A stretch of DNA of 64,000 bases, taken from assembly GCA_964564245.1 (NCBI GenBank), contig CAZMAK010000001.1, positions 48,989 to 112,988 on the forward strand, written 5' to 3'. Below are positions 9,308 through 49,682 of this stretch, piece after piece. The stretch is from an uncultured Ectothiorhodospiraceae bacterium (GTDB taxonomy: Bacteria; Pseudomonadota; Gammaproteobacteria; UBA9214). Position 1 is the stretch's first letter, and the number at the start of each line of letters is the position of its first letter. Below the pieces are notes generated by a model. It did not search any database, was not told the DNA's origin, and was given only the letters and a program-made list of their open reading frames with translations. Position numbers and translations under genes: made by a program.

Positions 9308-9701
9308 CCTCTCCGACCCCGGCCAGCGGCCTGACCCTGATTTCGCGTTGTACCCCGTTGTTATCGAGTACCACCCTGTCTTCATTAACGGCCATCAGCC
9401 GGTAACCATTGATTTCCTCTCCGATACCGACGATCTTCCCGCCGATATTCGCCAGTGAGTGCGGCCCGGCCAGCACAACCCCGCGCAGTTCCATGGAATC
9501 GTTACCGCCACCGGACTTGACACCGCCCCCGGCAGCGGCGGTTTGCGGTGGCACAAACGGGTTGATGTGCAGTTTCGTGTCGGGTTCCGACGCAAACCCG
9601 GCAAACGGCGGCAGCCACAGCGCCAGCAGCAACCCCAACGTGCGCCCGGCGGCCTGCCGGAACCGGTCTCCACGGGGCTGTTTCCCGCTGCGCTCAGTCA
9701 T
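9282..9701 (-). CDS. PilP/MshK-like periplasmic pilus assembly protein
   Basis: Signal peptide LGLLLALWLPPFAGFA. C-terminal beta-rich region GVVLAGPHSLANIGGKIVGIGEEINGYRLMAVNEDRVVL. Position between the PilO-like gene and the secretin. Start ATG at 9701 with GGGAGG RBS. Confidence 0.45.
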   Translation of the reverse strand: MTERSGKQPRGDRFRQAAGRTLGLLLALWLPPFAGFASEPDTKLHINPFVPPQTAAAGGGVKSGGGNDSMELRGVVLAGPHSLANIGGKIVGIGEEINGYRLMAVNEDRVVLDNNGVQREIRVRPLAGVGEDAKTSGTW

Positions 9702-10257
9702 CCTGCGCCTCCCGGTAGGAAACGATCGTGAAGGTGGCGACCACCCGCCGTGCCGTGTCGGCCGGCGGCCCCGCGGCAAGTTTGAACTGCTGGACCACCA
9801 CGTAGCCCAGTTCTTCACGCAAGTCCTGCAACCACTGGTACAGATCGAAGTAATCACCCGAAACCCGCACGTTGAACGTCACTTCCTCGAACACCTGCAC
9901 CTTGTCGCCCAGGCCGGGCGTCACGCTCAGCAGCTCGACATGATTGCGCCAGGAAATCTCCTGTAGCCGGCCGATGACGAAGGACTCCATCTGGTTCTTC
10001 GGCAGGTCGACCATATCCCCGTGCAACTGCCGGTTCAGCGTATCGACGCGGTCCTGCAAGCGGCTCATCTCGCCCTGCAGGGAATCGCCCTTGGCGGCCA
10101 CGCCTTCCAGCAGCCTGAGCGTGGCCAGCGATTCGCGGTAGGCCCTGGCCTGCGGCCACACGACGTAGCTCACCAGCGCGATAACCAGCGTCAGTGCCAG
10201 CGCGGACATCAGCAGCACGACGGTACGGGGCGGGACCCTTTGCAGGATGGCTTCCAT
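9694..10257 (-). CDS. PilO/MshJ-like inner-membrane pilus assembly protein
   Basis: Single N-terminal TM, coiled-coil, C-terminal beta domain. Gene order M-N-O-P-secretin. Confidence 0.55.
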   Translation of the reverse strand: MEAILQRVPPRTVVLLMSALALTLVIALVSYVVWPQARAYRESLATLRLLEGVAAKGDSLQGEMSRLQDRVDTLNRQLHGDMVDLPKNQMESFVIGRLQEISWRNHVELLSVTPGLGDKVQVFEEVTFNVRVSGDYFDLYQWLQDLREELGYVVVQQFKLAAGPPADTARRVVATFTIVSYREAQDD

Positions 10258-10907
10258 CAGTCTTTCGTCTCGTGCGTATTGACGGTCACGGCGAGATTGA
10301 AATCCACAAACTGGGTCCTGTCGACCAGCGTGGTATTGATGATCCGCACATCCTGGATCTCCGGCTGCCGGTACATGCGCCTGACGAATTCCGACAGCGC
10401 GGAGTAGTCTTTCGCCTGGCCATGGATCTGCATCCGCGTCTCGATCTTCCAGGCCTCGTTGCTCTGCTTGCCATCGGTGGCCGGAATGACGATGAAATAG
10501 CCGTTGCTGGCCGTCTCCGGCCTGTGCTCGACCACGCTCCCGGCCCGGTTGAAATCCCAGGACAGGAACCAGACATCGCCTTCCACCATGGCCCGGTCGA
10601 CCGCCTCGAACATGGCGGAGGCCACCGCGCCTCCGCGCAGCCCGCGCAGCAGCACCAGCCGGCTTTCCAGTTCGGCGCGTTTCCGGTCCAGCTGCGTGAA
10701 CCGCTCGCGCTGTTGCGCCGACACCGCCTGGCGCGCCTGCAGGCCGGCGATCAACCGTCCGGTCCTGATCGCCTGGTAATGCAGCACGCCCAGTGCCAGC
10801 AGCAGGACGACCACCGCCAGTGCGACCGCCACGCCAATATTGAGCGCCTTGCCCTGCAGCCAGATACGACTGCGATAGTCGGCGGGTATCAGGTCGATTT
10901 CAGCCAT
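10257..10907 (-). CDS. PilN-like inner-membrane pilus assembly protein
   Basis: N-terminal IDLIP motif (like the INLLP of PilN), then a TM and a coiled-coil. 8-nt overlap with the PilM-like gene. Confidence 0.6.
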   Translation of the reverse strand: MAEIDLIPADYRSRIWLQGKALNIGVAVALAVVVLLLALGVLHYQAIRTGRLIAGLQARQAVSAQQRERFTQLDRKRAELESRLVLLRGLRGGAVASAMFEAVDRAMVEGDVWFLSWDFNRAGSVVEHRPETASNGYFIVIPATDGKQSNEAWKIETRMQIHGQAKDYSALSEFVRRMYRQPEIQDVRIINTTLVDRTQFVDFNLAVTVNTHETKD

Positions 10908-12036
10908 TTTCGATCAGCCCGTTCATGGCCAGACCGGTGGCAATGGCGATCTCGGGGGAAGGCATGGCAACCGTCACCGGCTGCCTGCCGGCCGTCCGGC
11001 AAAACACCTGCAGCGGATTCGGAATGGTCTGGACCTCGAGCCTGATCAGCGAATTCAGCAGCGCGTCCACGCCGCGCCAGCGCGCCAGGCTGCCCAGCAG
11101 GTAGATACGGCCGATCGGTTCACCGCGTGTCTGTGAGGCGGCGTAGATCAGGGTGCGATTGATCTCCTCGGCGAGCTTGAGAAAATCCGGCTTGAGGATT
11201 TCCTGCAGTGTCACGGAAGTCTCGCGGTCGATCGTGCCGTCTTCACCGGCCCCGCCCTTTACCTGCGGGTCGAGGCTGTTGCCGGCAACCAGCCGCCGCA
11301 CCGGCTCGGTCTCCATGTCCAGCGCTTTGGCCACATGATCCAGCAAGCGGTTCTCGCCGAACCGGACCTCCTGGTCGAACAGCAGGCGCGCACCGGAAAT
11401 CACCGTCATGAAGCTCGACTCACGGCCGAAATTGATCGCCAGCACGTTCTGGTGCTCGCCGCGTTCCCCCATTGCACTGACCAGGCGGCGAATGGCGGAC
11501 GGCCCGATTTCCAGGTGTTGCGTCTCGAGTCCGCTCTTGCGCAGCAGCTCGAGATAGCGGATGACGCGTTCACGCGGGGCGACTGCGACGATCGCCAGGC
11601 GCTCCTCCATACCCTGTTCCGGACGCACCGGCAGATAATCGATCACGTAGTCACTCAGTTCGCCATCGAGCCGCTCCTCCAGAAGCTTCAGGATCGAGAC
11701 GTCGTCCGAGCCGCCCTCGGTAACCGTGTAGGACAGCGGCATGATTTTCACGTCGGAAGACGGCAGTGTCGTGACGATGGCCCGTCCGCGGAACGCATCC
11801 TGCCGCAGTGCCTCGCGCACCAGCGACCGGAACCGTTTCGGCTCGGCCAGCAGATCGTCCAGCGTCCCGGTATAGGGCAGCGAGGCGCTGGCGTGCAGGG
11901 AGATCTCGCCGCTGTGGTCCACGGCAAGCTGCACCAGGTGCAGGGCATGCAGTGCGCACTCCACGCCGATGAACCCGGTACGCCGCGCATTGGCGCCCGG
12001 GCGAACACGGTGCAGGACTTCTGCCAGCGCAGCCAT
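10900..12036 (-). CDS. PilM/MshI-like actin-fold cytoplasmic pilus assembly protein
   Basis: About 380 aa, the size and first position of pilM in pilMNOPQ-type operons. No TM. Confidence 0.6.
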   Translation of the reverse strand: MAALAEVLHRVRPGANARRTGFIGVECALHALHLVQLAVDHSGEISLHASASLPYTGTLDDLLAEPKRFRSLVREALRQDAFRGRAIVTTLPSSDVKIMPLSYTVTEGGSDDVSILKLLEERLDGELSDYVIDYLPVRPEQGMEERLAIVAVAPRERVIRYLELLRKSGLETQHLEIGPSAIRRLVSAMGERGEHQNVLAINFGRESSFMTVISGARLLFDQEVRFGENRLLDHVAKALDMETEPVRRLVAGNSLDPQVKGGAGEDGTIDRETSVTLQEILKPDFLKLAEEINRTLIYAASQTRGEPIGRIYLLGSLARWRGVDALLNSLIRLEVQTIPNPLQVFCRTAGRQPVTVAMPSPEIAIATGLAMNGLIENG

Positions 12037-12184: not shown

Positions 12185-13372
12185 TCAGGCCCGGCCCGAG
12201 CCCTGTGCGCGCGGCGGGTCAGCCAGCACCCGGCTGATGATATTGGCGGTCTGGTGGTGCCCGTCCTTGCGGGCCTTGGCGGTGTACAGGGCCTCATCGG
12301 CCTCGTGGTAGATATGTTCCTGCGAGTACTCGATGCCTGCCGGTACACTGGCCAGCCCCACGCTCAGCCAGATGGTCATGCCATTCTGCGGATTCGCTGC
12401 GCGCAGGGCGTCCTGGATCTGTTTCAGACAGGCGATGATCAGCTGCTCCGGCTGCTCATTGATAAACAGCAGCGCGAACTCGTCACCCCCCATGCGGATC
12501 AGGTAACCGTCATCCGCCAGCGCCCGGGTAAAGTGCAGGCTGATACTGCGCAGCACCTCGTCACCGAAATCATGGCCGCAGCAGTCATTGACGGGTTTGA
12601 AGTTATCCACGTCCAGATAGGCAAAATGGAAGGTCCTGTGCTCCGCGTGCCACGCCGCGGTTTTCTCCTCGAAGGTGTTTTTCAGGAACCGCCGGTTCCA
12701 GGCGCCGGTGAGCGGGTCCTTGTTGGACAGGTGCAACATCTTGCGATTCGCCTGCTCCAGCTCGTAACGGGTCTGCACTTCGGACTTGCGGATGGTCATG
12801 TTGCGCGTGACCAGCAGCAGGCTGATCATGCCGGCGCCGACCATGATGAACTGCAACGACCAGAGCGTGGCCATATCGAACCGTTCATAGGACGCCAGGG
12901 TGGACACGGTGAAGGTCAGGTAGATCAGGCCGGTCACCAGCAGCGCCTCGCGCAGCCCCCACGGCACCAGCGGGGCGACCATGAACAGCAGCGCCACACT
13001 GCCCAGCGTCACCTGGTTGAAGTCGCCGGTCTTGTGCGCCAGCAGCACGAAGGCCGTGCCACTGATCATCAGCAGGCTGGTCCCGAGCATGTACAGGGAG
13101 CTGGTATCGCGTGCGACACGTGCCGACACCATGATGTGCGTGGACAGCAGGGCAAGCAGGCCGCTGGTATAGACGGTGAAGTGCGAATACCCGAGGGCAT
13201 AGAACAGCAACGCGCTGGCACTGTAGATGCACAGCAGCACCACGCCCAGCATGACCAGGCCATGGCGGGTTTCCTCCAGTGTCACGCTACGAGCGTACAG
13301 CGCCACGTCATCCGAGTCGTAACTCGATGAAGACCATGACTTTTTCAGCATTTTTGACAGGGCGTTATACAC
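12185..13372 (-). CDS. membrane-anchored diguanylate cyclase (multi-TM N-domain plus GGDEF)
   Basis: RMGGDEFALL GGDEF motif with upstream NKDPLTGAWNRR. Six predicted TM helices N-terminal. Confidence 0.85.
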   Translation of the reverse strand: MYNALSKMLKKSWSSSSYDSDDVALYARSVTLEETRHGLVMLGVVLLCIYSASALLFYALGYSHFTVYTSGLLALLSTHIMVSARVARDTSSLYMLGTSLLMISGTAFVLLAHKTGDFNQVTLGSVALLFMVAPLVPWGLREALLVTGLIYLTFTVSTLASYERFDMATLWSLQFIMVGAGMISLLLVTRNMTIRKSEVQTRYELEQANRKMLHLSNKDPLTGAWNRRFLKNTFEEKTAAWHAEHRTFHFAYLDVDNFKPVNDCCGHDFGDEVLRSISLHFTRALADDGYLIRMGGDEFALLFINEQPEQLIIACLKQIQDALRAANPQNGMTIWLSVGLASVPAGIEYSQEHIYHEADEALYTAKARKDGHHQTANIISRVLADPPRAQGSGRA

Positions 13373-13524
13373 ACCACCGTTATCGGCAGTACGCCGTTAA
13401 ACCATAGCGGGAGAAGCGTGACGCCGAATCCACCTGATACGCAGACAAAACAGATACATGGCCGCCCAAGAGCCGGGCCTTCAGGATCGTTATCCGGAAC
13501 CGCAGGGGAGCGTTTCACGGACCT

Positions 13525-14427
13525 TCAGACCCCGATCGCGAAGCGCGAACCCGGATGCATGCCCTTGGAGCCGGGAAAGATGAGGTACATGACCCCATCG
13601 AGCTGGCATTCGACCGCTTCCCGGATGGCCGCGCACCGCGCGGCTGTCAGGCCGGTGGCCAGCCAGGCAAACTGGGGCACCCGTGACACGAAGGCGTTGT
13701 ACTCGTCCTCATCGGCCTGGCCGACATCGCTTAACAGCCCGGCAAGATGCACAATCGAGGCCTCCAGGGAATAGTCAGCCGATTGCCCGGGGGTATTGTG
13801 CAACTTTACCGGTTCCCACAGGCCTTTCGGCAGTCCCCACTGCTGCAGCAGGTCCCCGCCCAGCCGGGCATAATCAAAGCCGATCACCGCACCTTCCACC
13901 TCGTGCAGCGGGATACCTTCCGTCCGGGCACGCAGCAGGGCCGCCCGGGATTCGTCCGGAATCGACTGGTACATGACCAGGTGCCCGATATCGCGCAGTA
14001 GACCGGCGACGAACAGCCGCTCGCTATCCAGCATGTTGCAACTGGCCGCCAGCAGGCGTGCAGCCGCGGCGCAATATACGCTGCGTGTCCAGAAGGCATG
14101 CATATCCATCACCTCGATGGAAATGCCGGCAAAGGTCTGCGCCACCGAGGTGGCCAGTACCAGGTCGTGCACCTGCTGCGAACCGAGCATGCCGACAGCG
14201 CGCGAAATGGTTTCAACCTTCACGGAAAGGCCGAAATAGGGACTGTTGACCTGGCGCAGCAGGCGTGTGGCGATGGCCGGATCCGTACTGATGACTTCCT
14301 CGATGTCGGCGACAGCATAGTCGGGATCATCCAGCACCGCCTTCAGGCGTAGATAAACGGCCGGCAGCGTCAGCAACTGTGCCTTTGTAGTGACTTTTTC
14401 CCAGAGGCTATTGGTCGGCTGATCCAT
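13525..14427 (-). CDS. HDOD-domain signalling protein
   Basis: HDOD hallmark segments LPAVYLRLKAVLDDPDYAVADIEEVISTDPAIATRLLRQVNSPYFGL and LLRDIGHLVM. Confidence 0.8.
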   Translation of the reverse strand: MDQPTNSLWEKVTTKAQLLTLPAVYLRLKAVLDDPDYAVADIEEVISTDPAIATRLLRQVNSPYFGLSVKVETISRAVGMLGSQQVHDLVLATSVAQTFAGISIEVMDMHAFWTRSVYCAAAARLLAASCNMLDSERLFVAGLLRDIGHLVMYQSIPDESRAALLRARTEGIPLHEVEGAVIGFDYARLGGDLLQQWGLPKGLWEPVKLHNTPGQSADYSLEASIVHLAGLLSDVGQADEDEYNAFVSRVPQFAWLATGLTAARCAAIREAVECQLDGVMYLIFPGSKGMHPGSRFAIGV

Positions 14428-15476: not shown

Positions 15477-18400
15477 TCACGGCGTGCACTGGATCTGGAT
15501 GTTGTCGAACCAGACTTCATCAGCCCACCCCAGCGTGGAAGAGCTGAGCAGCCGGATGGCGGTCGTACCCGAAATATAGGCACTGATATCCTGGCTGAAC
15601 GACCGGTAGCCGTAATCCGTACCCCAGCCCTGGAAGCGGGTGAGTTCGGTCCACGGCCCCGCCGACCCGTTGCTGGACACCTGCAGGGCCACATAATCGC
15701 TGCTGGTATCCAGCTGGTTGCGGCGATACTGCAATGACAACGTAGCCGTGGTCGCACCCGCCAGGTTGGCCTCGCGCAGCACACCCTCACCACCCCCGTC
15801 GTTATCCCGCACGCGCAGCTGGTTGGTCCCCGGCGTGGCGCTGGCGGTCGAATCGGCCCCGACCCATTCATCACCCGACTGCGCACCGTCTGCCTCGTTG
15901 ACCTCCTGCCAGTCGCCGGTCCAGCTAAGTGTGCCGTCATTGCCGGAATAGTTGTGTGCATTGAAGTCGTCGCGGTAGGTGCCACTGCACCCTCCGCCAC
16001 CGCCGCCACCGCCACCGCCGCCACCGCCACCGGTCGGTGGCACCTGGTCGGCATCCACCAGCACGATACCGCGCGGACGGCTCAGGCCGGAGGAGACGAT
16101 GGTCTCCACGTTGCCGCCGTCGGGATCGGAGCGCTGCACCCGCTGGTTGAGCGCATCGACCCAGTAGATCCGGTCGTGGTCCGCATCGTAGGCGATGTCC
16201 TGTGGCGCGTTCAGCCCGGTCACGATGGTTTCCATGTTGCTGCCGTCGAGGTTGGCGCGCCTGATCCAGTCGTTGCTGGCCCCGCCGGTCCAGTACATCT
16301 TGCCGTTTACCAGGTCCAGCGCACTGCCGACGGCGCCGGTCGGCCCGGTCGTGAGCGTGGTCACGGAGCTGCCATTGACTTTCATGCTCGATACCCGGCC
16401 ACTGCCGAACTCGGTCAGGTACATCTTGCCTGCGGACTTGTCCAGGCTGAGATAGGACGGCCGGTTCAGGGTATTGTTGACGAGCGTGGCGCCGCTGCCA
16501 TCGAGGTTGGCGCTCATGACCCGGCTGGAACCGTTGTCGTGGGTCCAGTACATCTTTCCGCCGGCCACATCCAGCTTGATGTCGAAGGTCACGTAGGCAT
16601 CATTATAGACGACCTCGCTGTTGCTGCCGTCCAGGTTCGCGCGCCGGATCTGGTAATTGTTGGTCCAGTAGAGCTTGCCGTTGACGGTGTCGATATCCAG
16701 CCCGGTCGGGCGGTCCAGCCCGGTCAGTACATCCTCCACATCGCTGCCGTCCTCGTCCGAGCGCTGGATCTTGTTGGCGACATCATCGGTCCAGTACACC
16801 TTCTTCGGCGGGACGGCCGGCACTCCGTCCATGCCCCACTGGATGGCACGCTGCACCAGCAGGCGGCCGTTGTTGTTGAGGTAGTCCCAGTTGAACTTGC
16901 CGGCCCGCCCGACCGGGACCGAGATGATACGAGCAACTGCATTACCACCGCCGAACATCTGTGCACCGGCTTCGATGGCCGAGAGTCCGGTGGCCCCGTT
17001 CAGACGGCCTAACGCCTGCAGGCCCGGCGCCGGGTTGGCGGTGACGGTCGCACCCTCCATAGCGAGGTTCCCGAGCGGGATCACGCCGAGCGGGAACAGC
17101 GCGGTGATGAACTGGGTGTTATCGGCGATCCCGATACTGTCGGTGACGGTGTAGCTGCCAGGATCGGCCACCCCGAGATTATCGTACTGCTCGGCCGGTT
17201 CGGTGATGACGGCGATGGGCGCCCTTTTCAGCCGGTTGCCAAGCGTGGCATCCGCCACGGTGTTGGAAACGTACACGGCATCGTTAGCCCCCATGGCAGC
17301 ATTCATGGTGGACTGGTCGACTCCATCGTCGATCAGTGTCACCACGTAGCCCCAGGACTCGAACAGGGTTTTGCGGGTGATATCCGCGGCGGCGGGAGCG
17401 GCCGCGTTCCCGACCACCAGCAGCAGGCGACCGCTGCCCTGTGGCAACTGGCAGACCACCCCGCATTCGCAGGCAAAGGTCAGCGTGAGTTGCGGGTGCT
17501 GCGCCGCAGCGGGGCTGTCGCTGCTGGTGAAGTCGATATCGCCGGCATTGCCACCGCCCTCGCGTAACAGGAAACCAAAGTTGGGGGCACCATCCAGCCA
17601 GTCCTGGACCTGTGCAGTGACATCCCACTCGTACCAGCCAGGCGCCATGGTGGGCAGGGTTACGCTGTCAATGACCGCGGCATCATAGTCACCGCCGGGG
17701 TTATTCCAGGCGGTCAACCCATCGTAGCTCTGGTAGGTCACACCCGCACCGGGCGGTGGCACCTGGTTGTCAAAGCTGCCTTCCACCCAGGCATGGGTAA
17801 CCCGGTGCAGATCAAGCCGGCCGTTGGACACACCGGAGCCGCCTTCCAGGTACAGACCCAGGTGGGCATCGGTGATGCGCGCGCCGGGCGGCAATACCTC
17901 CAGCGCAAAGCGCAGCAGCACATTGCGGTCATTCTTGATGTTCAGAATGGAGGAAGCACCGAAATTCGTGTTCTTGTGGGCACCGGCCCAGACAAAGGCA
18001 TCCTGCAGCTCGGCACCCGGCTGCAGGGTCGCCGAACTGACCGGCTGATAGAGCGGAATATCGTTACGAACGATGGTGTAGCTGGCACCACTGTCCAGCG
18101 TACCGGTTGCGGTCACCGCGGCGCGGTTGGACAAATTGCCATCCGTATACCTGACCTCCAGGTATGGCCGGTGACTGGCATCGCTGTCTTCCTTGCTGGC
18201 GAACTCCGTGGTATCCGTGCCGAGCAGCGTGGAAGACACGATAAGTACGCCGTAGTTCGGCTGCGCGCCACTGACCCAGCCCTGCACCAGCGCGGTCAGG
18301 TTGACATCGGCATACTGATCCTGCGGCGTGCCGGCCGGGATGCTGGCGACCGTCGAGGCATCGAAACTGGTACCGATGCTGTTCCAGGTCACCGTGGCCT

Positions 18401-18983
18401 CGTCCCAGGACGCGGTCACGCGGTGCACTGTCACCGGCAAGGTGTGTTTGAACCGGGTGACATACCAGTGCGCCACGGCGGACACGATCGTGGCACTGGC
18501 CGGGATGCCGGCATTCTCGATGTCGAAGCGGTAGTAGGGCCGGTCGTAGTTGCCGCCGAGCAGGTTGCTTTCCAGGCGCAGCGTGCCGTCGCTGCCGTGG
18601 TTGGCGTTGCCGTTGTTCTTGTCGATCCAGGCATCGTCGCTGACCGGCACACTGACGTTCGAGATCGTACTGCCCACCTTGTTGACAGTGATGGTGGTCG
18701 AATAGTGATGGGCGCCGAACGGCACGCTGGACAGACCGGTATAGGGACCGCAACCGGCTGTATCGATCTGCTGCAGGGTATGTTGCAGGCCGGCCCTGGC
18801 GACGTACTCCGCCTGCGTGTGCCCGGCCACGGTGCCGGTGGCATTGAGTTCGACTGCAGAGCCATGATTGATCATGAAGGCGACCACGGCAACCAGTGCG
18901 ATCAGCAGCACCACCGGCAGCAGCACGAAACCACGCCGGTCGTTTGCACAGGCCACACGCCGTGTCGATCTGACTCGACTCAC
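15477..18983 (-). CDS. giant minor-pilin/adhesin fusion: GspK/PilX-like N-terminus, two carbohydrate-binding-like domains, YWTD beta-propeller, Gly14 linker, C-terminal lectin-like domain
   Basis: N-terminal RRGFVLLPVVLLIALVAVVAF is a pseudopilin-type helix lacking Glu5, as in GspK. Two copies of a beta-sandwich module ending W(D/V)E(A/G)T/S..W.N. Six YWTD/YWT(N/H) repeats (YWTDDVANKIQRSD, LYWTNNYQIRRANLDGSN, MYWTHDNGSSRVMSANLDGS and others), as in LDL-receptor class B propellers. Gly14 tract. Stop overlaps the upstream pseudopilin start. Confidence 0.7.
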   Translation of the reverse strand: MSRVRSTRRVACANDRRGFVLLPVVLLIALVAVVAFMINHGSAVELNATGTVAGHTQAEYVARAGLQHTLQQIDTAGCGPYTGLSSVPFGAHHYSTTITVNKVGSTISNVSVPVSDDAWIDKNNGNANHGSDGTLRLESNLLGGNYDRPYYRFDIENAGIPASATIVSAVAHWYVTRFKHTLPVTVHRVTASWDEATVTWNSIGTSFDASTVASIPAGTPQDQYADVNLTALVQGWVSGAQPNYGVLIVSSTLLGTDTTEFASKEDSDASHRPYLEVRYTDGNLSNRAAVTATGTLDSGASYTIVRNDIPLYQPVSSATLQPGAELQDAFVWAGAHKNTNFGASSILNIKNDRNVLLRFALEVLPPGARITDAHLGLYLEGGSGVSNGRLDLHRVTHAWVEGSFDNQVPPPGAGVTYQSYDGLTAWNNPGGDYDAAVIDSVTLPTMAPGWYEWDVTAQVQDWLDGAPNFGFLLREGGGNAGDIDFTSSDSPAAAQHPQLTLTFACECGVVCQLPQGSGRLLLVVGNAAAPAAADITRKTLFESWGYVVTLIDDGVDQSTMNAAMGANDAVYVSNTVADATLGNRLKRAPIAVITEPAEQYDNLGVADPGSYTVTDSIGIADNTQFITALFPLGVIPLGNLAMEGATVTANPAPGLQALGRLNGATGLSAIEAGAQMFGGGNAVARIISVPVGRAGKFNWDYLNNNGRLLVQRAIQWGMDGVPAVPPKKVYWTDDVANKIQRSDEDGSDVEDVLTGLDRPTGLDIDTVNGKLYWTNNYQIRRANLDGSNSEVVYNDAYVTFDIKLDVAGGKMYWTHDNGSSRVMSANLDGSGATLVNNTLNRPSYLSLDKSAGKMYLTEFGSGRVSSMKVNGSSVTTLTTGPTGAVGSALDLVNGKMYWTGGASNDWIRRANLDGSNMETIVTGLNAPQDIAYDADHDRIYWVDALNQRVQRSDPDGGNVETIVSSGLSRPRGIVLVDADQVPPTGGGGGGGGGGGGGGCSGTYRDDFNAHNYSGNDGTLSWTGDWQEVNEADGAQSGDEWVGADSTASATPGTNQLRVRDNDGGGEGVLREANLAGATTATLSLQYRRNQLDTSSDYVALQVSSNGSAGPWTELTRFQGWGTDYGYRSFSQDISAYISGTTAIRLLSSSTLGWADEVWFDNIQIQCTP
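15991..16034 (-). repeat. (GGN)14-15 trinucleotide tract encoding a poly-Gly linker
   Basis: Forward strand reads ccTCCGCCACCGCCGCCACCGCCACCGCCGCCACCGCCACC. Protein has TGGGGGGGGGGGGGGC. Confidence 0.8.
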
Positions 18984-19939
18984 AGCGCACCCCCGACCTG
19001 TACCCGGGTATCCAGGCTGACGCTCCGGCCACTGACGGGATCGGTCAGCACCAGCGAGATGGTAACGAGCACCGCGCCGGCGGCGGTCGCCGGCAGACGC
19101 TCGACACGAAACCCGCTGACCTGATCGGCAATGGCGGATTCGATGAAATCGCGCCCGTCCACGACGCCGCTGCCATCCACATCCCAGGGCACCGGCTGAC
19201 GGCGGATCAGCTGTGTACCCTTCAGGTAAAACACCACCGGGTCGAGCCAGTCCTCGTTGCTGGCGCCGTCCTCGTCATCGTCGCTGCTGCTGCCCTCGTC
19301 GACCGTCCCGTCCGCGTCATCGTCGACACCGCAGATGCCCGGACAGCCGTCACCGTTGAGATCAGCACCGGGGTCCTCGTCGGTGTTGCTGTCGTTGTCG
19401 TCGTCGATCCCGTTGACCGGATCGAGGTTGGCGGTCGCCGACTCGTCGTCCGAGTCCGCGGCCCCGTTATCGACCCTGCCGTCCCCGTTATCGTCGATCA
19501 GGTAGATCCCGGGCGCCGCGTCGTTGGTCCAGTCGGCCGGCGGGTCCTCGTCGAAACGGCCGTCGCCGTCATTGTCCGCATCGGGCGTGCCGTTGCCGTC
19601 CAGGTCGGTAACATGATCGAGCGTCACCGCGACCACATTGTTGATGTTCTCCGGGTAGGCGGTCGCGGTATCGTCGTTGAGCGGGACCAGCAGGTGCGGA
19701 CTGCGACCGACCGCCTGCACGATCTGGTCCATGGCAAAGCGCGCATCGCGGTTGAGCGCACCGGTCTCCGAAACCGAGTCGAGGGTATCGAGCACCTGGC
19801 CGGTGACGCCGTTCAGGGCGGCAAGCAGTAGCGCGGACAGGGCCAGCGCCAGCAGCAGTTCGACGAGGGTAAAACCGCGCTGGCAGGCAGACCCCGCCCG
19901 GCTGGAAGCGGCGGGCGAGGGCAATATCGGGCTAGTCAT
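18980..19939 (-). CDS. GspJ/PilW-like minor pilin with an Asp-rich thrombospondin-type-3-like calcium-binding repeat insertion
   Basis: Prepilin motif QRG|FTLVELLLALALSALLLA after a 21-aa leader. Central region has 9 or more DxDxDG/DxDGDG-type repeats (DLDGNGTPDADNDGDGRFDED, DDNGDGRVDNG, DDDADGTVDEG). ATG at 19939 overlaps the upstream gene stop by 8 nt. Confidence 0.65.
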   Translation of the reverse strand: MTSPILPSPAASSRAGSACQRGFTLVELLLALALSALLLAALNGVTGQVLDTLDSVSETGALNRDARFAMDQIVQAVGRSPHLLVPLNDDTATAYPENINNVVAVTLDHVTDLDGNGTPDADNDGDGRFDEDPPADWTNDAAPGIYLIDDNGDGRVDNGAADSDDESATANLDPVNGIDDDNDSNTDEDPGADLNGDGCPGICGVDDDADGTVDEGSSSDDDEDGASNEDWLDPVVFYLKGTQLIRRQPVPWDVDGSGVVDGRDFIESAIADQVSGFRVERLPATAAGAVLVTISLVLTDPVSGRSVSLDTRVQVGGAL

Positions 19940-20423
19940 GGGCACTGCGCAGGGTCTCCAGTGCCGTGTCGCCGATCTCCACCCGCAGCCAGAGCAGGTC
20001 CGCCTCGGTGCCGGTAAACGGGTCAGCATCGCCATCCGCGTTGTCGCTGTCGTAACGCGACAGGTAAACATTGCGGGTCACCGTCCTGCCGTCCTGGAAC
20101 GTGACCGTGTCACTGTAACTGCCCGGCGTGACCCGGCTGCCGGCCGCCGTCGCGGCCGCATCCAGCGCGGCAAACGGCTCTGCCAGCAATTCCTCCATCC
20201 GCCCGGCCACCGCAAAGTGATCCTCGACCCGGTTGGCGTGCGCCCCGGCAGCGGCTTCCCCGGGTGACAGGGCCTCCAGTGCCGGCGCCAGCGCCAGCAT
20301 GATCAGCACGATCGCAATCAGCACCTCGACATAACTGATGCCGGCCATGCGGGCGCAACCGGTTTTACGCACCCTGGCCGGGCGTCTCCCGCACGCCGGC
20401 CGCCACGTCGTTACCCGGTTCAT
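19932..20423 (-). CDS. GspI/PilV-like minor pilin
   Basis: Prepilin-like G|ISYVEVLIAIVLIMLALAP with Glu at +5. The ATG forms an ATGA overlap with the stop of the upstream H-like pilin gene. The track ORF extends further upstream. Confidence 0.5.
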   Translation of the reverse strand: MNRVTTWRPACGRRPARVRKTGCARMAGISYVEVLIAIVLIMLALAPALEALSPGEAAAGAHANRVEDHFAVAGRMEELLAEPFAALDAAATAAGSRVTPGSYSDTVTFQDGRTVTRNVYLSRYDSDNADGDADPFTGTEADLLWLRVEIGDTALETLRSAHD

Positions 20424-20962
20424 TGCACGCTCACCCGGCCGCTGCTGCCGTCCAGGGTCAGTACCCGCTGCCGGCCGGCGATCCTGAACACGAGGCTGGC
20501 CTGCTCCAGGAACACCGGGTACGGTTTGCGGCAGTACGGTGTACCGTGGCCGTCGAACAGCGTTTCTCCGGTGCTCGAACAACTGCCGTGGTATCGGGCG
20601 CTGCTGCTGACCGAATCCACGGCCAGGTACGGCTGTGCCGCCAGGTCCACCGTGTAGGGCTGCCTGCTGAGCGGGTCACGCATGTCATACACCGGTGTCG
20701 GCGGGCTGGTAGTCATGTCGGCACTGAACAGGCGGATGGCCGGCGGGTCCGTGGTGATGGCAAAACCATGGGGAATGCCGGTGCGGATCGCCTCGTTGCG
20801 TGCGAAGCGGATGGCGTCGGCAAAGGCCTGGCTGGCGGCATCCAGCCGCTCCGGACCGGTCGACGACAAAAAAGGGATTGCCGCACTCGCGGCAATCCCC
20901 AGTATTGCGATGACAACCAGCAGCTCTACAAGAGTCAGGCCATGACTACGCAACGCCCGCAT
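20420..20962 (-). CDS. GspH/FimT-like minor pilin
   Basis: MRALRSHG|LTLVELLVVIAILGIAA prepilin signal. Size and position after the major pilin fit GspH/FimT. Confidence 0.65.
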   Translation of the reverse strand: MRALRSHGLTLVELLVVIAILGIAASAAIPFLSSTGPERLDAASQAFADAIRFARNEAIRTGIPHGFAITTDPPAIRLFSADMTTSPPTPVYDMRDPLSRQPYTVDLAAQPYLAVDSVSSSARYHGSCSSTGETLFDGHGTPYCRKPYPVFLEQASLVFRIAGRQRVLTLDGSSGRVSVQ

Positions 20963-20995: not shown

Positions 20996-21574
20996 TCAGT
21001 AGGCGTCGAACTGGGTGCCGCTACTGTCCTTGGACGTGTCATCGGCGATGAACTTGCCGGAGGTGGTGTCATAGCGCCAGCCCCCGCCCGCAGCGGCAGC
21101 GGTCATGTCCAGATCCCCGGTGGTCTCGATGGCCACGGTACCGTTGTGGGTCACCGGATTGGCCGGCAGGTCACCCTTGATGTAGGGGCCGAACGGATAT
21201 TCCACGGCAGCCGTATCCGTTGTATCGGAAATGCTGCAGGTCTGACCGGTGGAATTGGAATAGTATTTCAGCTGCTCGACCACCGCTGCCTGGCTGTCGG
21301 CGGCGCCACTGCCGACCGTACCACCGGTGCAGGTACCGCCACTCGAGGCCACCGCACCCGGGAACGCCCCGCTGTGCTGCTGGGTATACAGGTCAATGGC
21401 GCTGCGGATGCCGGACAGGTCGGAACGCAGTGCCGAGGCGGCGGCATCACCCGTCGAGGAGGCGAACTGCGGCACCACGATCGCGGCCAGGATGGCCAGG
21501 ATGATGGCGACGATCAACAATTCAACAAGGGTAAAACCTTCCTGGTTTGCCCTGTTCCCGTGTAGCGTAGTCAT
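20996..21574 (-). CDS. major type IV pilin / pseudopilin (MshA/GspG-like)
   Basis: Leader MTTLHGNRANQEG then FTLVELLIVAIILAILAAIVVPQF. C-terminal Cys pairs. AGGAG RBS 7 nt before the ATG at 21574. First gene of the G-H-I-J-K series. Confidence 0.75.
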   Translation of the reverse strand: MTTLHGNRANQEGFTLVELLIVAIILAILAAIVVPQFASSTGDAAASALRSDLSGIRSAIDLYTQQHSGAFPGAVASSGGTCTGGTVGSGAADSQAAVVEQLKYYSNSTGQTCSISDTTDTAAVEYPFGPYIKGDLPANPVTHNGTVAIETTGDLDMTAAAAGGGWRYDTTSGKFIADDTSKDSSGTQFDAY

Positions 21575-21882
21575 GGTTAACTCCTGTTCGCCCATATAGT
21601 ATGGTTTGGACAAACGGGGTATCGGCAAGTACCCGGGCGGCTTTAAAATATCAGGTTAATTAAGAGCTTCCAGCCACCCACCGCCATGACCGATGCTCTC
21701 CCGGCGAGCAACCGGATTTAACCATATAAACAGTGGGTTATCTATCTTCCGGACCTGGCTGACGGTGGCAAATCGCTTCAGGCTCGCCAGCTTGCAGAGC
21801 TGTGTGCGGGTAACTACTATAGCCCTGCATACGAGAAAACATATTCTTGCGCATACACAATAATGATTACGGAGGCTCTGTC

Positions 21883-22608
21883 ATGCAATTATTACGCACT
21901 GGCTGCGTGGTTCTCGCCTGTCTCGCAGGAGTTTCTCTAGAGGCCAACGCCCTCACCATTGACTTCGGCACGGTTAAGGATGCCAACGTGCAAAGCGACA
22001 GTTCCGGTCCGCTCGGGGGTGGCAGCGCAATCCTCGATCCCTTTACAAACAGTAGCTACAGCATCGATTCCTACATCGGATTTGATATCGCTGACTTTCA
22101 GTCGCTCGGAAACCCGGCTGTCGACGTTTCCCTCGATCTGTATGGCTTTGCTGCAAGAACCTCGCTGGTCCTGAATATCTATGGACTGAACGATCTGGTA
22201 TCTCCCGGCTGGTCAGAAAGCACCATCGACTGGACCAATGCACCCGGAATACAGTCAGATTCGATTGATCCTGCCACAACGACCCTGTTGTTTTCGGGGT
22301 CGGTCAGCTATACAGCGAATAACGTCATCAGCTTCAGTGACAGTTCTTTTGCTGATTTCATTAACAGCGACACAGATGGCCTGGTCACCTTCATTCTCAC
22401 GCAGCCAACCGCTACCAGCGAAAACCACGCATTCAGCAGCAAGGAATCCTCTGGCAATCCCGCTATCGGTCTCCCGGGTGACTATGCGCCCACACTGCAC
22501 ATTACAGCAGCGCCCGTCCCCGCCGCTGTCTGGCTGTTCGGTTCCGGCCTGCTGGGGCTGATCGTTGTGGCGCGGCGCCGGCACCGCGCCTCAGTGCACC
22601 GCCTGTGA
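21883..22608 (+). CDS. PEP-CTERM-anchored secreted protein with a carbohydrate-binding-like beta-sandwich domain
   Basis: Signal peptide MQLLRTGCVVLACLAGVSLEA. Domain ending WSESTIDWTNAPG is the same module as in the giant pilin-adhesin. C-terminus PVPAAVWLFGSGLLGLIVVARRRHR matches the PEP-CTERM sorting-signal architecture (VPxx, TM, RRR). GGAGG RBS before ATG 21883. Confidence 0.6.
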   Translation: MQLLRTGCVVLACLAGVSLEANALTIDFGTVKDANVQSDSSGPLGGGSAILDPFTNSSYSIDSYIGFDIADFQSLGNPAVDVSLDLYGFAARTSLVLNIYGLNDLVSPGWSESTIDWTNAPGIQSDSIDPATTTLLFSGSVSYTANNVISFSDSSFADFINSDTDGLVTFILTQPTATSENHAFSSKESSGNPAIGLPGDYAPTLHITAAPVPAAVWLFGSGLLGLIVVARRRHRASVHRL

Positions 22609-23715
22609 CAGCTTGAAGATCGGCAGGATCAGCGAACTCACGATCAGACCGACCACGGCACCCATGACGATCAGCATGACCGGTTCCACCATGCGCGAGA
22701 AGGTTGCCAGGTTGCGCGCCAGTTCGCGTTCGTAATAGAGCGCGATCCGCCCCAGCACCAGCGGCAGCTTGCCGGTTTCCTCCCCGGTGGTCACCATCTG
22801 GCTCACCATCGGTGGAATGAAACTCGCGGTCTGGAATGCAGCGGAAAAACCGCCGCCCTCGTTGACCGTTTCCTCCAGCCCGGTCAGGAAGCGGCGGAAC
22901 TCCCGGTTGGCAACCACCTCACGGCAGGCGGACAGGGCGTCCGGCACGCTCACGCCATGTTCCAGCGACAGGCCCAGTACCCGCAGCGACTGGATCAGGT
23001 ATATCCGGGTATAGATGTCGCGCAGGCCGAAGGCCGACAGCTTGAACCGGTCGAGCGCGGCACGACCGGCGTCACTTCGAAGCCACCACACCAGCAGGGC
23101 CACTGCAACCGCCACGCCGGCGCCCAGTTCCGGCCAGTACCGGACAAGGAAATGACTGAACCGCATCAGTACCAGCGTGGTGACCGGCAGCTTGTCGGCA
23201 ATGCTGGCAAACATGACGGCGAACTTCGGGAACACCTCCATCAGCACGAACACCACGACAAACAGCGAGAATGCGATCAGGAAGGCCGGGTAGGACAGGG
23301 CGGAAGTCACGGTACGGCGCAGCTCCATCCGCTTCTCGTCCATGTTTTTCAGCTCCAGCAGCACACTGTCCAGAAAGCCGCCCTGCTCCGCGGCCGCGAC
23401 CAGCGTGACGTAACTGACCGGGAACATGTCCGGGAAGTGGGTCAGTGCCCGGGAAAAGGAATTCCCGCTGGTCACCTGTTCCTGCAGCCGGTTGATGATG
23501 GCCGCCATGGCCGGATTCGCGACCTGTTTGCCCAGCGCGTTCAGCGCGGCATGCAGGGGGGTGCCCGTCTCCAGCAACAGCGACAGCTGCTCGGTAAAGA
23601 AGATACGGTCCTGCACACCGGGCCTGTGTCGCGCAAACAGTCGCGTGCGCGGTTTCGGAGTTGCCAGTGCGGCCTTCCGGGCAGTCTCCCGCAACGCGGT
23701 TATTTCAAGCGCCAT
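22591..23715 (-). CDS. type II/IV secretion platform protein (GspF/PilC/MshG family)
   Basis: Two T2SS-F repeats and three TM segments. Conserved C-terminus GE(E)TGKL...L...YYERE. Confidence 0.85.
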   Translation of the reverse strand: MALEITALRETARKAALATPKPRTRLFARHRPGVQDRIFFTEQLSLLLETGTPLHAALNALGKQVANPAMAAIINRLQEQVTSGNSFSRALTHFPDMFPVSYVTLVAAAEQGGFLDSVLLELKNMDEKRMELRRTVTSALSYPAFLIAFSLFVVVFVLMEVFPKFAVMFASIADKLPVTTLVLMRFSHFLVRYWPELGAGVAVAVALLVWWLRSDAGRAALDRFKLSAFGLRDIYTRIYLIQSLRVLGLSLEHGVSVPDALSACREVVANREFRRFLTGLEETVNEGGGFSAAFQTASFIPPMVSQMVTTGEETGKLPLVLGRIALYYERELARNLATFSRMVEPVMLIVMGAVVGLIVSSLILPIFKLSQAVH

Positions 23716-23725: not shown

Positions 23726-23895
23726 CCTGGGAGCCTGTCGGGCCTGGGCGATCGTAGCGAGCCGTGTGGGAGAACGAGGCCATTTTTCCGATCGTTCGAG
23801 GAGAATAGCCGTCGCTATTTGACGAGGAGGAGCGGAACAATGGACCGCTGTCCCACCGGCGCAGTAGATCAGTCCCAGGTCCGACAGGCTCCTAG
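23726..23895. mobile_element. MITE/REPIN-like element (about 170 bp) with 21-bp terminal inverted repeats
   Basis: CCTGGGAGCCTGTCGGGCCTGG (23726-23747) and its near-perfect inverted copy CCAGGTCCGACAGGCTCCTAG (23875-23895) bound the ATPase-platform intergenic region. 19 of 21 positions match. The left repeat contributes part of the platform gene RBS. The right repeat contains the ATPase stop codon. Confidence 0.55.
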
Positions 23896-25931
23896 ACATT
23901 GATGACACGGGAAACCTCCTCGATCGTGGTTTCACCCGCCCGCACGTGATCCAGGCCATCGACAAACAGATTGCGGAAATCCCGCTCATGTAGATGCCGG
24001 TGCAGCTCGTCGCGCCCCGGACTGGTGGTGATCAGGCGTTGCAACGATTCATCACATTGCAGCACCTCGTGTATACCCATGCGCCCGCGATAGCCGGAAT
24101 CGTAGCATTCGTTACAGCCACGCCCGCGCGCCAGCTGCACCTGCCCGTCCCAGCCGAACCGGCTGATCAGGCCCGGTTCGGCCACATAGCGCGTCTTGCA
24201 GGCCGGGCAGATGACGCGGACCAGCCGTTGCGCAACCACGCCGATCAGTGCGGAGGACAGCAGATACGGTTCCACGTCCATATCGATCATGCGCGTGATT
24301 GCGCCGATCGCATGATTGGTGTGCAGGGTCGACAGCACCAGATGGCCGGTCAGGGCCGCCTGCACGGCGATTTCCGCCGTCTCGCGGTCACGGATCTCAC
24401 CCACCATCACGATATCCGGATCCTGGCGCAGCGTGTGGCGCAGGATGGTGGAGAAGGTCAGGCCGATGTGCTCATGCACCTCGTTCTGGTTGACCACCTC
24501 GATCTGGTATTCGACCGGATCCTCGATGGTCACGATGTTCTTTTCCATGCTGTTGAGGTAGTTCAGCGCGGCATACAGCGAGGTGGTCTTGCCGCTGCCG
24601 GTCGGTCCGGTGACCAGGATCAGTCCGTGGCTGCTGTCGAGCAGGGACTTGAACAGGGTCAGGTTGCCCGCGCTCATGCCGAGCTTGTTGACGTCCAGCA
24701 GCGAACGGTTCTTGTCCAGCACGCGCAATACCACCTTCTCCCCGAACAGGCCCGGCAGTGAACTGAAGCGCAGGTCCACCGCGCGACCCTGGGTACGTAC
24801 CTGGATACGGCCGTCCTGCGGCATGCGACGCTCGGCGATATCCAGGTTGGCCATCACCTTGAGACGGGAGACAATGGCCGGGTGGTATTCGGCACTGAGC
24901 GTGGTGACCTCGTACAACACCCCGTCGATACGGAAGCGTACGCGGGTCCGGTTTCGTGACGGCTCGATGTGAATGTCGCTGGCGCCGTCACGGATCGCGC
25001 GCTGGACCAGCGAATTGACCAGGTTGACGATCGGACTGCCTTCCGCCATCTCGTCGATCGCGGCGTAGTCGTCGCGGGCAATATTCTCGACCACGGTAAA
25101 GTCGGCATCGACATCGCCGATCAGTTCAATGGTGTCCACGTTACCTGCGTAGGCATCGTTGAGGGCGTTCAGGATGTCCTCGCGCCGTGCAATCACCGGC
25201 TGCACGCGGCAACCGGAAAGCTTCTCGACCTCGGCGAACGCGGGCATGGCCTGCGGGTCCGAGGTGGCCAGGAACAGCACATCATGTATCTTCTGCAGCG
25301 GCAGCATCTGCAGGCGTTTCGCAACCCGCATGTCGATGATTCCCGTCACGGCAGGATCGTAGATACCGGCACGCAGGCGCACGCAGGGAATCGACAGCTG
25401 TTCACCCAGCGCGGTCAGCACGTCCTGATCGGACACCCACCCCTTGTCGATGATGATCTGCCCCATGCGCCGCGACGTCCGCTTCTGCAGCTCGATCGCC
25501 TCGGCAATACGTTCCTCCGTGATCAGACCCCGTTCCAGCAGGATATCTCCCAGGCGTTGTGTCCCGCCGCTGCGCGTAGTGCGTTGCACGGGGTCCACGT
25601 CCACCATGGGGACATAACTGGAAAACGAGGTAAGCGTCAGGATATCCAGCACGATCGTGTTGGCTCGCGCCAGCTTCAGCCAGCCGCCCTGCCGTACCGC
25701 CTGTTCCTGGATGTCTACCAGCGCCTCCAGCGCCGCACTGTTGAGCAGCTTGACCGATCCCAGGTCCACTACGAGCTGTGCATCGCCCGGTCGCATGCTT
25801 TCGTTCGCGGCGGCCGTCAGCGCCCGGATATCCTCATCACTGAGCAACGAGGTACGTGGCACCAGCTGGGTCATCACGCCCACGCGGGTACGCAACACCT
25901 CGCTCGTCAGATATTCGGGTGAAACACTCAT
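23892..25931 (-). CDS. pilus extension ATPase of the GspE/MshE family with N-terminal STAS-like domain and MshEN-type c-di-GMP-binding motifs
   Basis: Walker A GPTGSGKT, Asp box, His box, CPACK Zn motif. MshEN motif RLGDILLERGLITEERIAEAIELQKRT at about residue 118. The preceding 110 aa (LVVDLGSVKLLNSAALEALVDIQEQAVRQGGWLKLARANTIVLDILTLTSF) align with SpoIIAA-type STAS domains. 679 aa, versus about 575 aa for canonical MshE. Confidence 0.9.
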   Translation of the reverse strand: MSVSPEYLTSEVLRTRVGVMTQLVPRTSLLSDEDIRALTAAANESMRPGDAQLVVDLGSVKLLNSAALEALVDIQEQAVRQGGWLKLARANTIVLDILTLTSFSSYVPMVDVDPVQRTTRSGGTQRLGDILLERGLITEERIAEAIELQKRTSRRMGQIIIDKGWVSDQDVLTALGEQLSIPCVRLRAGIYDPAVTGIIDMRVAKRLQMLPLQKIHDVLFLATSDPQAMPAFAEVEKLSGCRVQPVIARREDILNALNDAYAGNVDTIELIGDVDADFTVVENIARDDYAAIDEMAEGSPIVNLVNSLVQRAIRDGASDIHIEPSRNRTRVRFRIDGVLYEVTTLSAEYHPAIVSRLKVMANLDIAERRMPQDGRIQVRTQGRAVDLRFSSLPGLFGEKVVLRVLDKNRSLLDVNKLGMSAGNLTLFKSLLDSSHGLILVTGPTGSGKTTSLYAALNYLNSMEKNIVTIEDPVEYQIEVVNQNEVHEHIGLTFSTILRHTLRQDPDIVMVGEIRDRETAEIAVQAALTGHLVLSTLHTNHAIGAITRMIDMDVEPYLLSSALIGVVAQRLVRVICPACKTRYVAEPGLISRFGWDGQVQLARGRGCNECYDSGYRGRMGIHEVLQCDESLQRLITTSPGRDELHRHLHERDFRNLFVDGLDHVRAGETTIEEVSRVINV

Positions 25932-38879: not shown

Positions 38880-40276
<1,397 letters not shown>

Positions 40277-40280
<4 letters not shown>

Positions 40281-49659: not shown

Positions 49660-49682
49660 ACGCAAGGCGGCGGGGGTTCAGC

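Follow-up and report, generated by a model that had tools for sequence, protein, structure and literature searches.

A giant modular minor pilin of the GspK class, probably the apical subunit of a dedicated type IV filament system in uncultured Gammaproteobacteria

We analyzed a 64,000-nucleotide stretch of DNA ("the window") from contig CAZMAK010000001.1 of an uncultured Ectothiorhodospiraceae bacterium, in which a single minus-strand gene at 15477-18983 encodes a 1168-residue protein that we term the giant pilin. This protein probably serves a dedicated type IV filament system as its apical minor pilin, of the GspK/PilK/PilX class, and consists of a pilin carrier onto which a set of non-pilin modules is grafted. 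The original prediction, made from the DNA letters, described a pseudopilin fused to adhesin modules at the end of a pilin operon. Our analysis upholds this description: the protein has a GspK-like N-terminus, its gene directly follows that of the J-position pseudopilin, and the proposed modules are present.

Features of the giant pilin gene (a slash marks the predicted cleavage site)
15477..18983, minus strand: whole gene, 1168-amino-acid (aa) modular GspK-class minor pilin; intact open reading frame with full-length homologues P0001-P0006
18930..18983, minus strand: leader peptide (aa 1-18), ending RRG/F; Gly at -1 in 89 of 90 relatives
18756..18929, minus strand: pilin alpha-1 helix (aa 19-76), hydrophobic N-terminal half followed by a conserved AxYVAxAGLxHA; AlphaFold2 (AF2) helix 21-76
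18648..18755, minus strand: first two pilin beta-strands (aa 77-112), in which Cys78 and Tyr94 are invariant; AF2 strands 84-89 and 92-100
18138..18647, minus strand: DNRLRE/CBM96 module 1 (DNRLRE1, aa 113-282), inside the pilin beta-sheet
18045..18137, minus strand: pilin beta-strands 3-4 (aa 283-313: AAVTATGTLDSGASYTIVRNDIPLYQP); AF2 strands 287-295 and 301-310
17469..18026, minus strand: DNRLRE/CBM96 module 2 (DNRLRE2, aa 320-505), mosaic; the second DNRLRE stretch by hidden Markov model (HMM)
17451..17471, minus strand: conserved CxCxxxC motif (aa 505-511), after DNRLRE2
16824..17450, minus strand: ThuA-like/class-I glutamine-amidotransferase-like alpha/beta domain (aa 512-720), lacking a conserved catalytic Cys
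16038..16814, minus strand: YWTD beta-propeller with six blades (aa 724-982), of the LDL-receptor class B type; PF00058, PF16472; six motifs
15990..16031, minus strand: Gly14 linker (aa 985-998); homologues have G/S-rich linkers in the same place
15480..15989, minus strand: C-terminal jelly-roll (aa 999-1168), MAM/choice-of-anchor-J/CBM-like, bracketed by Cys999 and Cys1166; conserved in the family

Results

The giant pilin gene is intact and belongs to a widespread family

The gene lies on the minus strand, a point absent from the original prediction, and reads through 1168 uninterrupted codons from a GTG start; its mature product has a computed mass of ~121 kDa and a computed isoelectric point (pI) of 4.55. 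A homology search with the protein returned 108 relatives. Six homologues (P0001-P0006) span 97-100% of its length at 48-64% identity, demonstrating that the gene is real and is neither a chance open reading frame nor a mis-assembly. About 100 relatives have a partial architecture, and most of these span the first ~60% of the protein before continuing into different C-terminal parts. Identity to the window protein is 62% for P0003 and 34% for P0075. The annotation of these relatives is mostly limited to "DNRLRE domain-containing protein", with the name PilX given a few times by JGI. When we searched a profile of the N-terminal module against 1.84 billion representatives, ~600 clusters at 50% identity matched with E <= 1e-10, again mostly annotated only as DNRLRE proteins, and the best 150 listed matches were all family members.

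The glycine linker, which the original prediction had noted along with the possibility of a nearby frameshift, consists of exactly 14 Gly codons at aa 985-998, in frame and with GGT, GGC, GGA and GGG mixed. A repetitive tract of this kind could in principle yield assembly or sequencing errors, in which case two genes would have been joined by a frameshift or mis-assembly and the long open reading frame would be an artefact. The tract is, however, a multiple of three with mixed codons; moreover, P0001-P0006 come from independent assemblies and share the same architecture, with an in-frame C-terminal domain after a G/S-rich linker, and the C-terminal domain is found in ~50 relatives. We therefore reject a frameshift or mis-assembly at the Gly tract and give such an artefact a negligible probability.

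The N-terminus is a GspK-class pilin module without Glu5

The GTG start codon of the giant pilin gene overlaps the TGA stop codon of the J gene (GTGA); use of an internal GTG would shorten the leader to 9 residues. A hydrophobic stretch, RRGFVLLPVVLLIALVAVVAF, occupies aa 16-36, and the N-terminal segment reads RRGFVLLPVV.... The segment has the makeup of a class III signal peptide, with a short polar leader, the site RRG18/F19 VLLPVVLLIALVAVVAF and ~20 hydrophobic residues. This candidate prepilin-peptidase site is strongly conserved: [F/Y][I/V]LLPVV is preceded by Gly at -1 in 89 of 90 relatives, with F or Y conserved at +1. Position +5 is Pro in 80 of the 90, and none of them has a Glu within +1..+11. 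Across 47 aligned N-termini, the -1 Gly, Cys78 and Tyr94 are invariant.

Apart from DNRLRE, the only NCBIfam match of the protein is T2SS_GspK (NF037980), in which residues 17-74 align with profile positions 2-59. The same model matches 32 of 47 family N-termini scanned alone (best E 6.4e-8), and the other models that recur in at least four of these 47 are also those of minor pilins (XpsI, ComGG, ComGE and Verru_Chthon_A). These matches, together with the missing Glu, agree with the original prediction that the N-terminus resembles tip pseudopilins of the GspK/PilX type. The protein thus carries a GspK-like N-terminus without Glu5, that is, a GspK-class pilin module. In K-class pilins Glu5 is always absent, and these proteins form the most apical subunit (PMC13533445).

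We modeled aa 1-335 with AF2 from a family alignment of 35 sequences (mean predicted local distance difference test score, pLDDT, 84). The model contains a 56-residue helix (21-76), two strands (84-100), a DNRLRE sandwich, and two further strands (287-295 and 301-310), and it shows the long alpha-helix at the N-terminus packed on an antiparallel beta-sheet that defines a pilin fold. Among pilins, the values listed for this model are 8.0 for EpsI, 7.7 for S. sanguinis PilA, 7.6 for GspI, 7.2 each for XcpX and a Thermus competence pilin, and 6.8 for XcpV. Foldseek comparison of the aa 1-335 model with the PDB confirmed DNRLRE and gave no significant pilin match. The original prediction had held everything after the helix to be unlike a pilin; this is not quite right, since DNRLRE module 1 is succeeded by two more strands of the pilin sheet (aa 287-310).

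The T2SSK alpha-domain model PF03934 has no match in the giant pilin, and when the N-terminal, middle and C-terminal parts of the window protein were each searched on their own, Pfam gave none at E 10. Profile searches of the N-terminal, middle and C-terminal modules against PDB sequences returned nothing meaningful, which we attribute to the solved pilins lacking the N-terminal helix and to the other two domains being too divergent.

One DNRLRE module is inserted in the pilin sheet and a variable cargo follows

Both DNRLRE_dom (196 bits against a cutoff of 34) and CBM96 (126 against 26) score far above their Pfam/NCBIfam cutoffs, and the modules share the beta-sandwich fold of the founding structures. 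The two related, carbohydrate-binding-like sandwiches of the original prediction are thereby confirmed as lectin-like modules, by HMM and structurally. The motifs that it took as their ends, WDEATVTWN (aa 193-201) and AWVEGSFDN (aa 398-406), are present, but lie in mid-module.

Relatives that lack DNRLRE1 (P0071, P0091, P0096 and P0099-P0102) have a contiguous pilin module that reads ...FG..SY.A.fTP..GSPV.ItATGTLasGa..L.R.., and in P0091, P0096 and P0099-P0102 strands 3-4 directly follow strand 2. In the window protein, the same two pilin halves are split by aa 113-282. The uninterrupted module in these relatives shows that DNRLRE1 is an insertion in the pilin sheet, and GspK likewise holds a foreign alpha-domain within its pilin sheet (PMC8179133, PMC13533445).

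DNRLRE2 is mosaic: it is 38-47% identical to that of the closest full-length relatives (P0001-P0005) and 63-74% identical to that of the otherwise more distant P0007, P0009, P0013, P0015 and P0020. Such mosaicism suggests that cassettes have been exchanged between lineages. Separately, we note that Cys78 (18750-18752) is the single invariant Cys in the pilin module. It is possible that a disulfide staples the end of DNRLRE2, through the CxCxxxC motif, onto this residue.

The next domain (aa 512-720), a conserved alpha/beta domain of ~210 residues, is missing from the original prediction. This middle domain has no sequence relative in Pfam or the PDB, and Pfam searches with 17 middle-domain homologues gave only noise. 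We modeled the middle and C-terminal region contiguously on P0020, a homologue with a minimal architecture (pLDDT 88.6), whose middle and C-terminal domains are 43% and 54% identical, respectively, to those of the window protein.

The propeller is of the six-blade YWTD type, as originally proposed: Ldl_recept_b (PF00058) scores 62.5 bits against a cutoff of 21, with an additional DUF5050/LRP1-like propeller match, and six YWTD-like motifs lie at aa 728, 770, 810, 853, 895 and 938 with a spacing of 40-43 residues, together covering aa 728-943. It is a variable cassette, found in only ~10 of the 108 relatives, and other relatives carry LamG, toxin-receptor-binding-like or extra ThuA-like modules in its place. 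The original prediction had further contrasted it with PilY1, the propeller adhesin that is a separate protein in Pseudomonas-type pili, and proposed that here the propeller is fused to the K pseudopilin. The fusion stands. PilY1/PilC family models have no match to the giant pilin at E 0.1, and we reject homology of this YWTD-type propeller to that of PilY1, to which it is unrelated.

The C-terminal domain, originally put at ~200 residues, is present with a length of ~170 residues. Cys999 and Cys1166 are invariant and bracket it, and its conserved C-terminus forms the last jelly-roll strand in the structural model. Weak Pfam matches of relatives include InhA-like MAM, reelin subrepeat B and F5/8-C, and one relative exceeds the cutoff of NCBIfam choice_anch_J.

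The gene occupies the K position of a conserved locus

The giant pilin gene is the last of a G-H-I-J-K pilin operon, coupled to the J gene through the GTGA overlap, and lies among genes for the remaining parts of a filament machine.

Neighboring features of the locus
18980..19939, minus strand: J-position pseudopilin (QRG/FTLVE) with an Asp-rich insert; N_methyl match, weak GspJ match
19932..20348, minus strand: I-position pseudopilin (MAG/ISYVE); motif with Glu+5, conserved in related loci, no HMM match
20420..20962, minus strand: H-position pseudopilin (SHG/LTLVE); TIGR01708 gspH E 2e-11, N_methyl
20996..21574, minus strand: major (G-type) pilin, ~192 aa (QEG/FTLVE); N_methyl, TIGR01710 gspG E 1.8e-11
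22591..23715, minus strand: platform protein (GspF/PilC family); PF00482; GspF 281 bits, below the cutoff of 424
23892..25931, minus strand: extension ATPase with STAS, MshEN cyclic di-GMP (c-di-GMP)-binding domain and GspE/PilB core; PF00437, PF05157, STAS
12185..14427, minus strand: GGDEF and HDOD genes in the interval from the pilin operon to pilM; one or both are there in most related loci
7901..12036, minus strand: PilM, PilN, PilO/GspM-like, PilP/GspC-like and a short (494-aa) secretin; order kept in related loci

All of the G, H, I and J pilins carry the G/xxxxE motif. We examined synteny by tblastn over related loci from species-representative genomes. The order GspE-GspF-G-H-I-J-giant pilin-(HDOD/GGDEF)-PilMNO(P)-secretin recurs in ~38 loci that contain both flanks, the J gene immediately precedes the giant pilin gene in ~46 loci, and the gene order around P0003 and P0075 is the same as in the window. 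Essentially all related loci in the tblastn comparison share this order. No separate K-type gene occurs in the window or in the ~46 related loci. The K position claimed in the original prediction is therefore secure. Overall, the locus comprises a histidine kinase, a response regulator, a GGDEF-EAL protein, the STAS-MshEN ATPase, the platform protein, the G-H-I-J pilins, the giant K pilin, HDOD/GGDEF proteins, PilMNO(P) and the short secretin.

The c-di-GMP motif of the ATPase scores above its cutoff (NF053729, 64.7 bits against 38). As in MSHA pili, the presence of MshEN points to c-di-GMP as the signal that turns extension on (PMC4624765, PMC7096442). In the same ATPase, an anti-sigma-antagonist-like STAS domain lies N-terminal to MshEN, and this STAS-MshEN-T2SSE arrangement is also found in two related loci (L001 and L002). 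In the J pseudopilin, the insert of ~120 residues has repeated DxDxDG-like motifs (such as DLDGNGTPD, DNDGDGRFD and DDNGDGRVD) that look like calcium-binding loops.

Two plus-strand genes interrupt or flank this arrangement. At 21847-22608, between the platform and major pilin genes, lies a gene on the opposite strand whose 253-residue product combines a DNRLRE/CBM96 domain with a sorting tail of the PEP-CTERM/VPLPA-CTERM kind; among NCBIfam models it comes closest to that of the flocculation protein PepA, though below the cutoff (E 5e-10). None of 55 related loci has a counterpart, which marks this gene as an insertion specific to the source genome. Directly downstream of the giant pilin gene, at 14549-15328, is a gene resembling REP (repetitive extragenic palindromic)-associated tyrosine transposases (74.5 bits against a cutoff of 80). 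Seven related loci (L017, L032, L035, L042, L047, L049 and L054) have a homologue in this place, in one orientation or the other, and no REP-like hairpins flank the gene in the window. The window is also unusually rich in signaling genes (3696-6898, 25928-30383, 38880-42013 and 57622-62363); these code for two GGDEF-EAL proteins, several hybrid histidine kinases, a response regulator with a PAS domain, and a sigma-54 activator together with its kinase. The window further encodes a GT4 glycosyltransferase at 49467-50882.

The machine matches no curated class, and two alternatives to a tip pilin are improbable

Several observations count against the giant pilin being a surface-exposed tip pilin. 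NF037980 aligns with the protein over just 58 N-terminal positions, at 18-23 bits (cutoff 130). The N_methyl models PF07963 and TIGR02532 have no match to the giant pilin even at E 10, whereas the neighboring G, H and J pilins do match N_methyl models. No prepilin peptidase gene or motif was found in the window, by motif scan and by Pfam on the other large open reading frames, and no retraction ATPase (PilT-type) is encoded in the locus. The head of ~110 kDa would have to pass through a short secretin of 494 residues. The DNRLRE modules are acidic, with pI values of 4.65 and 4.38 (net charge computed only), and the groove of alginate-binding CBM96 is lined with Lys and Arg (PMC9971899), so that a ligand is not transferable by homology. 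Finally, the ATPase, platform and secretin score slightly higher against models of the type II secretion system (T2SS) than against those of type IV pili, which leaves room for a periplasmic pseudopilus. Given their acidity against the known basic grooves, we reject a simple transfer of alginate or chondroitin specificity to the DNRLRE modules.

From scores far below the GspK equivalog cutoff and the silence of the N_methyl models, we conclude that the protein is not a GspK orthologue and instead has a GspK-like N-terminus. We take PF07963 and TIGR02532 to be the signatures behind IPR012902; without a match to either, the protein falls outside the IPR012902 definition of the modular-pilin survey, and that survey would miss the family.

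The lack of N_methyl and significant Foldseek matches, and the annotation of most relatives merely as DNRLRE domain-containing proteins, would also fit a protein whose helix is a mere Sec signal or membrane anchor, making it an ordinary secreted or anchored multidomain adhesin encoded beside pilin genes. Such a protein is hard to reconcile with the near-universal Gly at -1 and conserved F/Y at +1, with the matches to GspK and other pseudopilin HMMs in 32 of 47 members, or with a start codon overlapping the J stop and a fixed place after H-I-J in ~46 loci with no other K candidate. We consider it a very improbable explanation, and reject the reading of the N-terminus as a plain signal peptide, a possibility that had been raised alongside the original prediction, because of the conserved Gly and F/Y and the GspK-type HMM matches.

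The second alternative concerns the machine itself. Its components fit no curated equivalog of the T2SS, the type IVa pilus or the MSHA pilus: the ATPase scores 593 bits with GspE (cutoff 630) and 567 with PilB (676), the platform protein 281 with GspF (424), and the secretin 186 with GspD (351), 184 with PilQ (284) and 131 with MshL (250). A canonical T2SS is not indicated, as GspD, GspE and GspF are all below their cutoffs, the locus encodes PilM and PilN, and matches to GspM and GspC are weak. A T2SS-like apparatus could nevertheless build a short periplasmic pseudopilus whose giant K subunit stays short of the surface; the CBM-like modules of this subunit would hold on to a periplasmic cargo (an exopolysaccharide or glycoprotein, for example) and push it through the secretin. 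Consistent with this, GspE, GspF and GspD are the top models, the O- and P-position proteins weakly match GspM and GspC, the locus has no PilT-type ATPase, the N-terminus is GspK-like, c-di-GMP control is typical of matrix export, and the operon of this window includes a gene for a PEP-CTERM DNRLRE protein. Yet every T2SS equivalog falls below its cutoff, PilQ and GspD are nearly tied on the secretin, PilM and PilN stand in place of GspL, and the major pilin has ~190 residues against ~140 for GspG. Hypervariable lectin cassettes and a mosaic DNRLRE2 would also be less expected of a piston with a housekeeping role than of a head that is exposed and selects ligands. We know of no T2SS that exports a polysaccharide, which likewise speaks against this model. 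A T2SS-like periplasmic pseudopilus with a cargo-handling tip is thus the main rival to our interpretation, and an unlikely one.

Discussion

A model for the giant pilin as an apical adhesin

In our preferred interpretation, the giant pilin would be the apical minor subunit of filaments built by a dedicated type IV system, and a prepilin peptidase whose gene lies elsewhere would cut it after Gly18. Its hydrophobic helix would retain it in the inner membrane, where it would nucleate a tip complex with the I- and J-type pilins. The absence of Glu5 would be explained by there being nothing above K in the tip complex, by analogy with GspIJK and PilVWX (PMC13533445). The major pilin would then polymerize below this complex, powered by the STAS-MshEN-GspE ATPase at high c-di-GMP, and the filament would pass out by way of the secretin, carrying the ~110-kDa ectodomain on its distal tip. 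This ectodomain, with two CBM96-type modules, the ThuA-like domain, the YWTD propeller and the MAM/CBM-like jelly-roll, is built of folds used in glycan or surface binding, and may serve as a multivalent head for putative glycan or surface ligands. Such a head could attach cells to particles, to host surfaces or to their own matrix.

Distribution and significance

Hosts of the family are almost all uncultured Gammaproteobacteria (including Sedimenticolaceae, Woeseiaceae, Ectothiorhodospiraceae and Chromatiales). Members occur in metagenome-assembled genomes (MAGs) of tubeworm endosymbionts (Escarpia and Lamellibrachia) and of the lucinid-clam symbiont Candidatus Thiodiazotropha (L005, L007 and P0051), which hints at a possible role in host association. 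We also found two short contigs of a "Halobacteria archaeon" MAG with a giant-pilin-type gene beside a J-type pilin gene (L025 and L026, with protein P0027); this occurrence is probably binning contamination.

A broader and more tentative reading, which we regard as possible but doubtful, is that the whole locus represents an undescribed type IV filament lineage whose tip pilin is a scaffold for recombining lectin cassettes that set the attachment glycan. The locus is apparently restricted to uncultured marine, largely sulfur-oxidizing Gammaproteobacteria, including tubeworm and lucinid endosymbionts. Were this reading true, the cassettes (the mosaic DNRLRE2 and the YWTD, LamG and other inserts) would decide which particle, matrix or host glycan each lineage binds, and the tip would be the specificity determinant for symbiont-host or particle colonization.

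The giant pilin overturns no existing concept. If our assignment is right, it would extend the modular-pilin principle to the GspK class, whose apical subunits without Glu5 escape motif-based surveys, and would offer a natural example of a binding module placed in the pilin sheet where GspK has its alpha-domain, with others appended in a string. The family would also supply candidates for c-di-GMP-controlled attachment to particles or hosts by uncultured sediment bacteria and chemosynthetic symbionts, and a test case for ideas on how tip complexes license filament assembly.

Comparison with known systems

There are several parallels with GspK/XcpX, the apical minor pseudopilin of the T2SS (PDB 3CI0, 5VTM). 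Both have a leader ending in Gly, no Glu at +5, similar first ~58 residues, a gene placed last after H-I-J, and a foreign domain within the pilin beta-sheet (PMC8179133, PMC13533445). In contrast to GspK, the giant pilin's insert is a DNRLRE/CBM96 beta-sandwich instead of an alpha-domain, with no PF03934 match; ~850 residues extend beyond the final strand of the pilin sheet; the equivalog cutoff is missed by a wide margin; and the machine, with PilM and PilN, is not a canonical T2SS.

CpaL/TadG, the closest precedent, similarly combine a K-position pilin-like module and a large adhesin part in one polypeptide, have a predicted place at the tip beside two small minor pilins, and supply their own completing beta-strand in cis (PMC13533445, PMC11870444). 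They differ in filament class (Tad/T4c) and in cargo, which is vWA rather than CBM96, YWTD and jelly-roll. Moreover, CpaL's extreme C-terminus is proposed to fold back on the pilin module, whereas the giant pilin's sheet is completed right after DNRLRE1.

S. sanguinis PilB (vWA) and PilC (lectin) and the type IVb proteins CofB and TcpB are likewise pilin carriers with binding modules grafted on at the tip, and S. sanguinis PilC binds glycans (PMC8179133, PMC9934059). With a pilin module, two DNRLRE modules, a ThuA-like domain, a YWTD propeller and a jelly-roll in one polypeptide, the giant pilin is a modular pilin in the sense of Raynaud et al. (2021). PilB, PilC, CofB and TcpB, however, keep the canonical N-methyl motif, Glu5 included, and bear one or two modules joined by a linker; the giant pilin is a K-class protein without Glu5, with one module in the sheet and four more after it.

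PilY1/PilC and MshQ resemble it in size (~1100-1200 aa), in being encoded last in a minor-pilin operon, and in being thought to act as tip adhesins, and the MSHA system also has a c-di-GMP-binding ATPase, MshE (PMC13533445, PMC7096442). PilY1 and MshQ are non-pilins separate from the K homologue (PilX and MshP, respectively), with docking proposed to occur by C-terminal beta-strand donation (PMC13533445). Here pilin and cargo are one chain with a YWTD propeller (for MshQ, this comparison is by description only), and the giant pilin, with a pilin module of its own and no PilY1/PilC family match, is not a member of that group. The CBM96/DNRLRE domains of polysaccharide lyases (PDB 7VBO, 8WAB) belong to the same domain family by HMM and fold, but are borne on enzymes and have basic grooves for anionic polymers (PMC9971899); here they are borne on a pilin and are acidic.

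Pilin-adhesin fusions at the K position are thus already known from CpaL/TadG, PilB/PilC and CofB; the principle is established, and the design is less unusual than the original prediction implied (PMC13533445, PMC11870444, PMC8179133). What is new is the family itself, a K-class pilin without the N-methyl motif, the insertion of a CBM96 domain in the pilin sheet, a cargo notable for how large and how variable it is, and the dedicated, conserved locus in which it is encoded.

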